DNA of 64,000 nucleotides, taken from an uncultured Rivularia sp. (lineage in GTDB: Bacteria > Cyanobacteriota > Cyanobacteriia > Cyanobacteriales > Nostocaceae). The position numbers and the translations under genes are program-made. Position 1 is the stretch's first letter. The number at the start of each line of letters is the position of its first letter. The DNA lies in the NCBI GenBank assembly GCA_963665115.1, contig OY762007.1, forward strand, positions 1,408,001 to 1,472,000, read 5' to 3'. Below the pieces are notes generated by a model that saw only the letters and a program-made list of their open reading frames with translations, was not told the DNA's origin and made no database searches. Of the stretch, positions 3,446 through 52,143 are shown one piece after another.

Positions 3446-3483
3446 ATGTTTCACGCTTGATAGAATACAAACTCAACCTCTTG

Positions 3484-5883
3484 ATTAAACTCAACGAGGT
3501 TGTCACCAACCCCGTTGGTCTTCAAAACCGGACATGAAACTTTCACTTCATCCGGCTCCTCAATATCTCGGTGCTTGTTACACACACCTCGTACCGCGCT
3601 TATCTGTGGCGGTTTTTTCATCGTGGCAATGTCGATGTAATAATTGGAAATTTTTGTATTCATCCTTACCACCTTGAAAGCGGGGAATGATATGGTCGAT
3701 TTCCATTAAATCATCTTCTTTAAAGTAGAGTCCACAATGAGAACATTTACCTTTTTGCTTTTTGAGAAGTAATGAAATTCTCTTGTTAGCTTCCGGGTGT
3801 TTTCCCATTCTGGAACTCCAGTAGACCCAATCTCCGTCAAAAGGACTTCTTTTTGCTTGCACTTTTATATGCCTTAAAATAGAAGTTTCTGTATGTCGGG
3901 AAATCTTTTTAAATGAGTCTTTTTCAGTCTTTGCGAATCTCCAACCACCACCTTTATCAATCAGCCAGTATTTGTTAGATATCCAATATTGGCTTTTTGT
4001 TGGGTGGCGGTGAACTGCCCAGTTTTTTAATTGCTGGTACATCCAGTTATCTAGCGTCGAATATGCCTCACTACTTACTACTGAGGAAAAATAATTAGAC
4101 CATCCCGTTATTACCGGATTGAGTTCATTAATAAGTTTCAACTGTGTTGATGCTTTATGAACGTTGATGATTTTCTTAATTTTCTGTCGGTGTTTCTTAA
4201 GGCTTTCGTTACTAGGTTTGATAAGTGTTTTAAACCCAAGTGGTTTTCCAACAGTGTTCTTTCCTGATTGATATTTCCCAACCGGAAACTGCCTGATGGT
4301 GTGTCCCAAGAAGTTGAAACCCGTGCTTCCCTCATACTCTATGGTGTGAGAAATTCTTGTTTTACTAGGTTTAAGTTCTAGTCCCACTTCTTTTAACCAT
4401 TCAGATATTATTATTTGACATTGCTGTACTACCTCTAAATCTTCGTGTAAAATTACGAAGTCATCGGCAAAGCGAATTAGATGAGCGGCATTACGACGGG
4501 CTGCCACTTTGTTCTTTTCCCAGAAAACCTTTTCCGGAAAAGCTTGTCTAATTCGTTCTTCCATTCCATGAAGGGCAATGTTTGCTAATAATGGCGAACA
4601 AATGCCACCTTGTGGTGTACCTTCTTCTGTTGGAAATAGCTTTTTACTGTCTATCACCCCTGACTTTAGCCATGCTTTAATTTGACGGCGTATAGTAGGG
4701 GAGGTATTCAGTTTTGTCAATAATTTTGAATGGTCAATTCGGTCAAAACATTTCGCAATATCCGCGTCAAGCACATATTTGGCTTTAGTTTTTATTGCTA
4801 AAAATATCGCGCCGATTGCATCATGGGGTGAACGTCCCGGTCTAAAACCGTATGAATTTGGCTCAAATTTAGCTTCCCATTCGGGTTCCAGAGCCATTTT
4901 CACTAATGCTTGTAATGAGCGGTCTTTTATTGTGGGTATTCCTAAAGGGCGTTTTTCATCTGTTCCCGGTTTAGGAATCCAAATTCTACGTGTAGGTTTG
5001 GATTTTCCGGTTAAATTTAATCGCCTAACTAGCTTTAAACGTGCTTCTGGGGATAGTAGTTTAATCCCATCCACTCCTGCCGTCTTTTTACCAGTATTAT
5101 CTTGTGTTACCCGACGTACCGCTAAACATTTTGATGACCAAGACCTTATCAAAGTTCTTTGGAGTCGCCTGACTGTTTTGACATCGCCACGTTCTGAGGC
5201 TTTGAATATGCGTTTTTGCAGCTTAAAAACTCTCCTTTCTAGCTTACGCCAGGGGATGTTTTTCCATTCCATCATCGGGTTTTCAATCCGTGCTTTAGAC
5301 ATATATACTGCTACTCATACCTATTCAATCCAAGACATCGTGTCTACGTCTGCTTATCCCAATAATTACTTTGGGCATTGGCTTCTTAGACAATCTTTCC
5401 GCCTTGTTGCATCCGGTTAGTACCTACTCATGGTTTCGACCTACACATGAGAGCGAACAAGGGGTTACTTCGTTCCTGATAATCGTTAGTTGAATCGTTA
5501 GGATGATGCTCTTTGCCGGGTTTATTGGGAGTGCATATTGGTCGGAAGTGTAACCGCCAATCCCGTTATCCTTTACCTTTTGGTTATAGCCTATCAGCTT
5601 TATTTGGCTATTGACCTGTGACGACAATTCGGACACATCTTTGCTTTTGCTATCCATAGATTCATGCTCGATGGGAACCAGATTAAGCTTCCAGTTTTAC
5701 CACCTTTTCACCCCGCTTTACGGATTGATGACTAGTCGCTACCGTAGGGGTGATGCTGTTACCCCGGCACCTGGGGAGAAGGACTTACACCTTCACGATT
5801 ATCAAGTTGTCAAGGTTCAGTTTTTATCCTTTCCTTGCCACCCGTCCCTGAGTTTTTGCTCATTTAGGATGAACGAATCGCAC
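3484..5883 (-). mobile_element. Group II intron (IIB-like), full length, 2400 nt
   Basis: 5' end GTGCGATTCGTT at 5883. Domain V/VI GAGCCGGATGAAGTGAAAGTTTCATGTCCGGTT...GTTGAGTTTAAT ends at 3484. Internal RT ORF. Candidate EBS1 ACACUU (5551-5546, in a CGG/CCG stem-loop) pairs with the 5' exon end GAGUGU. Confidence 0.92.
3578..5302 (-). CDS. ltrA: Group II intron reverse transcriptase/maturase with C-terminal HNH endonuclease
   Basis: KRPLGIPTIKDR, SYGFRPGRSPHDAI, GTPQGGICSPLLANIALH, RFADD, domain X LNPVITGWSNYF, HNH EIDHIIPR...LLHRHCHDEKT. Confidence 0.96.
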   Translation of the reverse strand: MSKARIENPMMEWKNIPWRKLERRVFKLQKRIFKASERGDVKTVRRLQRTLIRSWSSKCLAVRRVTQDNTGKKTAGVDGIKLLSPEARLKLVRRLNLTGKSKPTRRIWIPKPGTDEKRPLGIPTIKDRSLQALVKMALEPEWEAKFEPNSYGFRPGRSPHDAIGAIFLAIKTKAKYVLDADIAKCFDRIDHSKLLTKLNTSPTIRRQIKAWLKSGVIDSKKLFPTEEGTPQGGICSPLLANIALHGMEERIRQAFPEKVFWEKNKVAARRNAAHLIRFADDFVILHEDLEVVQQCQIIISEWLKEVGLELKPSKTRISHTIEYEGSTGFNFLGHTIRQFPVGKYQSGKNTVGKPLGFKTLIKPSNESLKKHRQKIKKIINVHKASTQLKLINELNPVITGWSNYFSSVVSSEAYSTLDNWMYQQLKNWAVHRHPTKSQYWISNKYWLIDKGGGWRFAKTEKDSFKKISRHTETSILRHIKVQAKRSPFDGDWVYWSSRMGKHPEANKRISLLLKKQKGKCSHCGLYFKEDDLMEIDHIIPRFQGGKDEYKNFQLLHRHCHDEKTATDKRGTRCV

Positions 5884-5966
5884 ACACTCCCCATGTCTAA
5901 AGACAAGGGGATTCTTAGTTCGCAGGGACACCAAATGTGGTGAAGTACTACTACTCCGCCACATTA
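5884..5966 (-). mobile_element. IS200/IS605-family right-end remnant (tnpB omegaRNA-like/PATE), interrupted by the intron; last 3 nt CAA lie at 3483-3481
   Basis: Joined exons read GAACTAAGAATCCCCTTGTCTTTAGACATGGGGAGTGT|CAA, a subterminal hairpin plus TCAA end typical of IS605-group right ends. An upstream ATGTGG...CCACAT hairpin is present. No tnpA/tnpB ORF. Confidence 0.65.
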
Positions 5967-6481
5967 ATTTTGATGGTACTGTTGACATAAAGAATCTTTT
6001 CACCATATTATTTCGTGTTGAAAAGATATTTTTTAAGATAGAAATACTTTTGTGTTTTAAGAGATTTATAGTAACAACTATTAAGCTAGATCGGTAATTT
6101 AACGTATAAATAATCGATCGTTAAATGCTCGCTAAATCTGATACAAATATCACTGTTAAATGGTGATAAATTTAATATATATAAAAGTGTAGTTTTTTAA
6201 TATTGTAGGATATTCCTCTTTAATCGCTCGTTATAAATAGATTAAGGAGCCTACTTGTACAATAAAATAATCAGTGATAATGGTGCGTTGGGCACCAAAA
6301 TACATATTTCACAATCCGAATTAGCTCTCACTCCATAACACAATGGCAATCTTAAGGTTCGTAAATCTACATCCGAACACTTGCTATCTTTTTGCGGAAA
6401 CGCTCCGCTAACAACCATAGTGTTCTTCGCCAATTTACCAATTACCAATTACCAATTACCCATTACCCATTACCCTTTATC

Positions 6482-40668: not shown

Positions 40669-41210
40669 GTTTTAATTCCTTTACCCCTCACGGGGATGGA
40701 AACACCTGTTAAGGTCTGACTATTTGTATTATACGCAATATGTTTTAATTCTTTAACCCCTCACGGGGATGGAAACTTTTTTGCAAAGATATCTCTTAAG
40801 ATTATCTCCAATATTAGTTTTAATTCCTTTACCCCTCACGGGGATGGAAACGTACCCGAACGTCAACATTGAAGTCAGAGTAGTAAAAAGTTTTAATTCC
40901 TTTACCCCTCACGGGGATGGAAACGTGCTAAGATTAGGATCACGAACGTAGGTTTTTTTGTTTTAATTCCTTTACCCCTCACGGGGATGGAAACAAGAAA
41001 ACCCTCTCTGAACTTCCCTCTGGAAATTTCTGAGTTTTAATTCCTTTACCCCTCACGGGGATGGAAACCTTCCGTGATATCATTTAGCTTCTGAGTCAGT
41101 CTGGTTTTAATTCCTTTACCCCTCACGGGGATGGAAACGCTAGCTCACCAAACAAAACTGACATTTCAGCTTTATGTTTTAATTTCTTAACCCCTCACGG
41201 GGATTGAAAG
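40669..41210 (+). CRISPR. CRISPR array 1: 8 repeats (GTTTTAATTCCTTTACCCCTCACGGGGATGGAAAC, 35 nt), 7 spacers of 35-40 nt
   Basis: Repeats start at 40669, 40742, 40817, 40890, 40960, 41034, 41104 and 41176 (last degenerate). Confidence 0.98.
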
Positions 41211-51318: not shown

Positions 51319-52143
51319 GTTTTCATCCCCGTGAGGGGTTAAAGAATTAAAACTAATGCTCGATCAAGGTGGAACAGCTTCTGTTGCTGAGTTTCCATCC
51401 CCGTGAGGGGCTAAGGAATTAAAACCATGTCTGCTTTCCCCGGAGCGAAAGATGCTGGACAGTTTCCATCCCCGTGAGGGGTTAAAGAATTAAAACCAGA
51501 TTTGTAAGAATACATCAAAATAGCGAGGGAAAAGTTTCCATCCCCGTGAGGGGTTAAAGAATTAAAATAAAGAGTTGGAGGAATAGGAATTATCCTTGCT
51601 TCAGTTTCCATCCCCGTGAGGGGTTAAAGAATTAAAACCTTTTCTCCGGCTCTTGCTGGTAGCAATGGGATTAAGTTTCCATCCCCGTGAGGGGTTAAAG
51701 AATTAAAACACCTAGTGGAAAATATGGCAGTGGAACTCGCTAATTTGTTTCCATCCCCGTGAGGGGTTAAAGAATTAAAACGACTTGATTGACTTTCGCC
51801 CCATCGCTTGCAAGATGTTTCCATCCCCGTGAGGGGTTAAAGAATTAAAACACGAATATCTGGAACTGGAGCACACGTTGTGCATTCAGTGGTTTCCATC
51901 CCCGTGAGGGGTTAAAGAATTAAAACCAGTTTATTTTAGATATTTTTTCTGGATGTGGTAAAGATTGTTTCCATCCCCGTGAGGGGTTAAAGAATTAAAA
52001 CCGTTGATTGGGATTGCGATAAGAATGGAACTTTCTCGTTTCCATCCCCGTGAGGGGTTAAAGAATTAAAACAAGTTACAAGTAATAAATTCGCTATATT
52101 TGCGGATCGTTTCCATCCCCGTGAGGGGTTAAAGAATTAAAAC
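51319..52143 (-). CRISPR. CRISPR array 2: 12 repeats (GTTTTAATTCTTTAACCCCTCACGGGGATGGAAAC), 11 spacers of 35-40 nt
   Basis: Plus-strand repeat starts at 51319, 51391, 51462, 51534, 51604, 51675, 51747, 51817, 51892, 51967, 52038, 52109; variant repeats cluster at the leader-distal (left) end. Confidence 0.98.

Follow-up and report, generated by a model that had tools for sequence, protein, structure and literature searches.

Introns residing in IS200/IS605 elements are known, and several described systems bear on the one reported here. The family F4 group II introns of Thermosynechococcus elongatus occupy a conserved site in ISEL1 (PMC2882425), and introns with a reverse transcriptase and an HNH domain are reported in cyanobacterial IS605 elements, where the accessible text of that paper names them just as a possible source of the HNH domain for IscB (PMC4810608). 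IStrons, which join a group I intron to an IS605 or IS607 element, bring splicing and the TnpB omegaRNA together at the right end (10.1101/2023.11.20.567912; PMC13565253), and class IIC introns, IIC-attC introns and the IIB1 intron UHB.I2 at attC lie 3' of a DNA hairpin that serves a single-strand recombinase (PMC7923331). IS605 is not mentioned in the accessible text of two further papers (PMC12584367 and PMC7306698). A literature search weighted to papers available without subscription, and to text rather than figures, found no description of an intron site at T|CAA of a right end.

Here we describe a group IIB retro-intron at such a site in an uncultured Rivularia sp., in a 64,000-nt stretch of contig OY762007.1 (positions 1,408,001 to 1,472,000; referred to as the window, in whose numbering all coordinates are given). 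It is of the same intron kind, in the same transposon family and in the same phylum as the cyanobacterial introns with an HNH domain (PMC4810608). It differs from the F4 introns of ISEL1, which are ORF-less and for which the accessible text refers neither to an omegaRNA nor to a right-end site (PMC2882425). In IStrons a group I intron extends over the entire element and splicing discards the guide, whereas this group II intron sits within the end and its splicing would restore the joint between scaffold and guide. It shares with the hairpin-targeting IIC and attC introns a position 3' of a hairpin, but it is a group IIB intron with a 6-nt EBS1, EBS2, EBS2a, an HNH domain and an IS605-end target. 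We are confident that the intron entered T|CAA of the right end of an IS605-family element, likely by retrohoming, and that deletion has likely reduced the host element since then to a stub of 59 nt, which would not give a functional omegaRNA. The intron is thus likely a parasite of OMEGA transposons, with an exact and recurring retrohoming target inside sequence on which IS605 elements depend both for cleavage by TnpA and for a predicted pseudoknot of the TnpB guide RNA.

The intron, its junctions and the remnant element

The intron occupies 2,400 nt of the minus strand, from its 5' end at 5883 (GTGCG) to its 3' end at 3484 (AT), and is present once in the 8.69-Mb genome. It has the sequence hallmarks of a group IIB (chloroplast-like) intron: a 5' end of the form GUGYG, a domain V, a domain VI that carries a bulged A, and an AY 3' end. 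Domains V and VI are placed at 3484 to 3561 (minus strand) from their fold and from an Rfam Intron_gpII match to the intron's 3' part (3560 to 3484, 52.1 bits), and the branch-point A is predicted at 3491. EBS1, EBS2, EBS3 and EBS2a are complementary to the exons, as is typical of group IIB; the short EBS1 and missing EBS2 pairing of class IIC are not found, nor is the mark of an IStron, a group I ribozyme that covers the element and has its 3' splice site in the right end. The intron-encoded protein (3578 to 5302, minus strand; 574 amino acids in an uninterrupted frame) has RVT_N, RVT_1, GIIM maturase and HNH domains, and the closest solved structure is 6ME0_C (E value of 2e-108), which we take to be the T. 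elongatus enzyme. Its reverse transcriptase motif is FADD, not YADD, a feature shared by the four closest relatives that were compared.

GAGTGT closes the 5' exon and CAA opens the 3' exon, and joining the two exons gives GAAT, a hairpin and GAGTGT|CAA, the restored right end that an earlier note on this DNA had read from the sequence. The exon thus has the GAAT guide, the subterminal hairpin and the terminal TCAA of an IS200/IS605 right end; GAAT is the right-end guide motif of IS608 and TCAA its cleavage motif (PMC5934647). The intron splits the terminal T|CAA, three bases ahead of the boundary between scaffold and guide. The T of TCAA is at 5884 and the three remaining bases, CAA, are at 3481 to 3483 (minus strand), as identified from the junction and by comparison with relatives. 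The last base of the intron, a T, together with this CAA recreates TCAA at the far (3') junction. EBS1 (ACACUU, 5546 to 5551, minus strand) pairs with IBS1 (5889 to 5884) through five Watson-Crick pairs and one G-U pair, in agreement with the complementarity that the earlier note had pointed out, and EBS3 (G, 5511, minus strand) pairs with the first base of the 3' exon, C at 3483. EBS2 (5618 to 5614, minus strand) forms four of five pairs with exon positions -9 to -13, and EBS2a (5620, minus strand) places a C opposite the G at exon position -14; the positions of these two are assigned from an alignment.

Homology to tnpB elements of relatives identifies 5884 to 5939 (minus strand) as the remnant of a tnpB-only (IS1341-type) element, including the last tnpB codons with their stop (5917 to 5915), the GAAT motif (5914 to 5911) and the right-end hairpin (5911 to 5888). 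The exon tail is 93 to 97% identical over 36 to 56 nt to the right ends of tnpB-only elements in genomes of the same genus, and by this measure the resemblance is beyond chance; the assignment of the exon to an IS200/IS605 right end made in the earlier note therefore holds. The protein of these parent elements scores above the NCBIfam TnpB cut-off. Comparison of the exon with other genomes, a check that the note had proposed for the joined exon, finds the last 62 nt of the 5' exon matched in 128 of 389 same-family genomes; at the best 24 loci CAA follows in every case and tnpB similarity is nearby in 20, with one locus too short.

Only the last 59 nt of the element, positions -59 to -1, survive. 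The left end of a complete IS200/IS605 element is absent, and so are tnpA and tnpB at the locus; for tnpB, which the earlier note had also missed here, none of the 15 best tblastn matches listed lies in the window. Similarity to the tnpB elements ends at 5939, where six bases (5939 to 5934) are shared with a truncated palindromic host repeat (5934 to 5972, minus strand), which suggests a deletion by microhomology with its joint at these bases. This repeat has about 100 BLAST matches in the genome, and it is expanded at the same locus in a second genome, G003. In the parent family CTAC precedes the left-end motif in all seven loci that have the motif (10 were examined, and two of these CTAC loci are probably one insertion). 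The orthologous locus in G003 has neither element nor intron, and there CTAC is directly followed by the 3' flank of the window. By this comparison with the empty site, TCAA is the true end of the element, and the sequence that the earlier note took to be a guide (here 16 nt, 3465 to 3480, minus strand) is the flank of the original insertion. The first 7 nt of this flank are also complementary to part of domain VI (within 3465 to 3510) and could compete with its folding; the complementarity is probably due to chance, because the flank is native host DNA in G003.

Recurrence of the target and how it is read

An exon-blind survey with the first 23 to 25 nt of the intron retrieved 50 loci (39 and 11), 11 of which have a 5' exon ending in GAGTGT; the rest are mostly attC-like, and they include five copies from Hymenobacter and two copies with no 5' exon, one of which is also from Hymenobacter. 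Seven introns with any 5' exon match that of the window at 80% identity or better across a span exceeding 800 nt (L107, L113, L121, L127, L129, L178 and L179), and all seven follow the hexamer. GAAT and the hairpin are present in every clade member whose exon ends in the hexamer and is 30 nt or longer, 12 of 12 (the window, L107, L113, L124, L127, L128, L129, L169, L175, L178, L179 and L222, with duplicate records counted once and L101 and L121 excluded for having too little exon), and all 12 flanks differ. As background, about 9 of the 216 GAGTGTC sites in the window's own genome are right ends. The 3' exon starts with CAA in 11 of 13 copies, the exceptions being L179 (CAT) and the 5'-truncated L069 (TAT). 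Judged from these sites, right-end targeting is a lineage trait of the clade to which the window intron belongs, and the earlier note's reading, that this intron lineage targets IS605 right ends, holds for all 12 members.

The interrupted elements are in varied states. At right-end sites with enough flank, tnpB is complete at L175, open to the contig edge at L124 and L128, broken at L178 and at L063 (the same site as L107), where the frame stops before the last RuvC motif, a fragment at L169, and not detected at the window, L064 (the same as L127), L129, L143 (the same as L179) or L222. The L113 intron, 94.6% identical to that of the window, is on a 2.5-kb contig titled Flavobacteriaceae and has a right end of cyanobacterial type, which may reflect misbinning or horizontal transfer. 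At L101 and L064 the junction is preceded by another group II intron, which ends 7 nt and about 80 nt upstream, respectively, and the L179 intron carries a nested insertion of 2.4 kb.

The recurrence is likely explained by base pairing of intron RNA loops with the conserved right end. EBS1 and EBS3 vary with the class of target, EBS3 being G before C at right ends and mostly A before T at attC-like sites, and EBS2 and EBS2a co-vary with the variable 3' arm of each right-end hairpin. Cognate EBS2 and EBS2a pairings score 50, compared with 38.2 ± 2.7 for shuffled pairings, and none of 20,000 shuffles scores as high (n = 11), a figure that overstates independence since the best of two registers was allowed and the sites come from related introns; a 6-nt version of the EBS2 pairing test gives p = 0.0007 (n = 10). 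Pairing of EBS2 is weak in L124 (two of five), and EBS2a is Watson-Crick paired in 10 of 11 copies, as C-G, G-C or A-T. The EBS2a-IBS2a pair is needed for DNA mobility and not for splicing (PMC8643678), and its conservation thus points to retrohoming at the DNA level. None of nine empty right ends in the window's own genome matches both EBS2 and EBS2a well, which accords with the single intron copy.

The order of events that we infer starts with insertion of a tnpB-only element 3' of CTAC. The intron RNP would have recognized its end, reading the near-invariant GAGTGT|C with EBS1 and EBS3 and the variable 3' arm of the hairpin with EBS2 and EBS2a, and reverse-spliced into it; before or after this, a deletion via the 6-nt microhomology would have taken away the left end, almost the whole of tnpB and the omegaRNA's 5' half. 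The strong conservation of the target likely reflects a double role, as the TnpA cleavage site and as the 3' strand of the predicted omegaRNA pseudoknot. The right end would thus offer the intron a landing site that is multicopy and neutral for the host, with excision by TnpA and the unspliced omegaRNA likely crippled.

In a quick tree of 30 proteins, without L121, L178 and L219, which have too little protein, a 21-row branch (support 99) comprises 11 introns at right ends, 8 at attC-like sites and 2 from Hymenobacter; the attC rows group together (support 98), the right-end rows do not resolve as a single clade and require three label changes, and another quick tree is similar. The right-end introns may have a single origin. 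The sister branch (L100, L112, L114, L123, L136 and about 20 more) occupies the top strand of attC-like sites, within the GTT core, and has EBS1 and EBS3 retuned; complementary core boxes and a long hairpin are found at three of the five such sites with both exons. The kinship with IIB introns directed at attC is close and suggests a switch of targets between two sites of single-strand recombination. The Hymenobacter members L102, L115, L122 and L135 interrupt one conserved coding position, whose flanking peptide may be that of a DNA methyltransferase. Genome G322 contains a very distant group II intron (loci L221, L224, L225 and L226; EBS1 candidate ACACUC) that shares this 5' junction at three tnpB elements, all different, and at one place outside such an element; the likeness covers the 5' junctions only and looks like convergent targeting of tnpB right ends. 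Two introns of genome G887 use the hexamer outside right ends, and other chloroplast-like introns at L095, L162 and L164 start right after the 3' arm of hairpins resembling IS605 ends.

Alternative readings and the omegaRNA question

Whether in an IS605 right end or in an attC-like site, the clade's two principal targets, the intron lies just 3' of a DNA hairpin, and one could suppose that the RNP reads the hairpin structure in single-stranded DNA in the manner of class IIC introns, with base pairing secondary. Weak EBS2 pairing in some copies and the lack of any conserved base at +5 would fit this, but the hairpin has to be open for its 3' arm to pair, as it does, with EBS2 and EBS2a, and the HNH domain is retained; we regard this reading as unlikely. 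Insertion at many GAGTGT|C sites, followed by selection sparing only those copies that lie in dispensable IS ends, would account for the distant introns L219, L220 and L226 at the same hexamer outside right ends, and mobile elements are a frequent hiding place of group II introns (PMC7306698). It would not be expected, however, to make EBS2 and EBS2a follow each hairpin arm, and other neutral intergenic sites exist, yet right ends are hit in 12 of 12 cases, so that we consider survival bias improbable. Movement of the IS together with the intron as cargo is also to be considered, and bears on what the insertion does to the element. At the DNA level, 2.4 kb of intron separates the hairpin from the terminal bases and likely hinders TnpA. 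The earlier note had spoken of a block to end recognition, which is likely but may not be complete, as TCAA is recreated and IS608 tolerates a doubling of the right-end linker from 10 to 20 nt at the cost of about 7-fold lower transposition (PMC3597680). That tolerance and the T|CAA 3' junction of 11 of 13 copies would allow TnpA to cut at the recreated TCAA. Against co-movement, the linker would be 2.4 kb, no identical composite of IS and intron is seen at two sites in the few genomes checked, the L063 element has no second near-identical copy in its genome (G004), the three right-end introns of G322 are in different elements, and the window locus has no left end, although its genome has 10 TnpA-family matches; we hold co-movement to be very improbable.

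The last alternative is that the stub is an orphan omegaRNA gene whose splicing yields a guide RNA for a TnpB encoded elsewhere, as the earlier note had proposed. The intron runs in the same sense as the omegaRNA, and its splicing would bring the hairpin, UGUCAA and the flank back together; the genome has 32 TnpB-domain matches, and the omegaRNA of an IStron functions in trans in E. coli (10.1101/2023.11.20.567912). The remaining 59 nt speak against it. The core scaffold of ISDra2 measures 116 nt, with a pseudoknot between bases -5 to -3 and -103 to -105 (PMC10097598). For 12 ends of the parent family the predicted fold comprises stem-loop 1, another stem and the hairpin of the right end; eight of its pairs are changed on both sides, and a loop at -91 to -87 can pair with -6 to -3 (paired in 97.9% of cells, with no two-sided change). 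A pseudoknot is predicted for the parent family by analogy with ISDra2, and the intron cuts its 3' strand. The window retains, on sequence, the terminal hairpin, the 3' pseudoknot strand and a flank that would follow as guide after splicing; it lacks nexus stem-loop 1, together with its pseudoknot loop, and stem 2's 5' strand, and so falls short of the omegaRNA set of a nexus with pseudoknot partner plus stems 2 and 3. Because -59 to -1 alone is retained, splicing here would give a hairpin and flank without the pseudoknot partner, and 'omegaRNA-like', as the note had called the element, is too strong for the part that survives.

Other observations agree. A scan with an omegaRNA family model, one of the proposed checks, gives 38.6 bits at the window, compared with 136 for a training member and 83.5 for a truncated copy outside the training set. 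No cognate TnpB is found in the genome, the best match being 36% identical to the parent protein. The search for a guide target flanked by the transposon-associated motif, another proposed check, finds in this genome neither CTAC with an 8-nt match nor CTAC with a 10-nt match at up to one mismatch; a candidate at 5798117 (21 of 22 matched) is preceded by GGGT, not CTAC, and none of 13 other 16-mer guide matches with up to two mismatches follows CTAC. Promoter-like sites on the minus strand number 3 against 3.4 expected, with none above chance. We therefore find a splicing-gated guide RNA acting in trans extremely improbable at this locus, and retain retrohoming into a right end since reduced to a stub. 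A host hairpin tried as a replacement nexus has no GGRCA-type loop, and loose right-end patterns gave matches that are mostly noise. The exon-exon joint is not seen in contigs of RNA-library runs X1 to X4 and X8 or of runs X10 to X12, whose type is unrecorded (8 of the 12 runs listed, none on record as RNA of this strain); related introns with exon ends attached occur in contigs from these runs and may be DNA.

A splicing-dependent omegaRNA is conceivable not at this locus, which is a relic, and rather at related copies that keep tnpB and the full scaffold; the gene is complete in L175 and, in L124 and L128, runs unbroken to the end of the contig. At copies of this type TnpB might be guided only after splicing, and loaded TnpB might then cut IS-free alleles and drive in the IS together with its intron, leaving the window as a dead relic of such a cycle; we offer this tentatively and think it doubtful. 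If true, it would be the reverse of an IStron, with a group II intron gating RNA-guided transposon homing and hitch-hiking on it, and the tnpB-intact copies provide a natural, testable case of a splicing-dependent guide RNA. Elsewhere in the window there are two CRISPR arrays (Rfam CRISPR-DR37) in opposite orientations, at 40669 to 41138 (minus strand; 7 repeats) and 51319 to 52143 (plus strand; 12 repeats).
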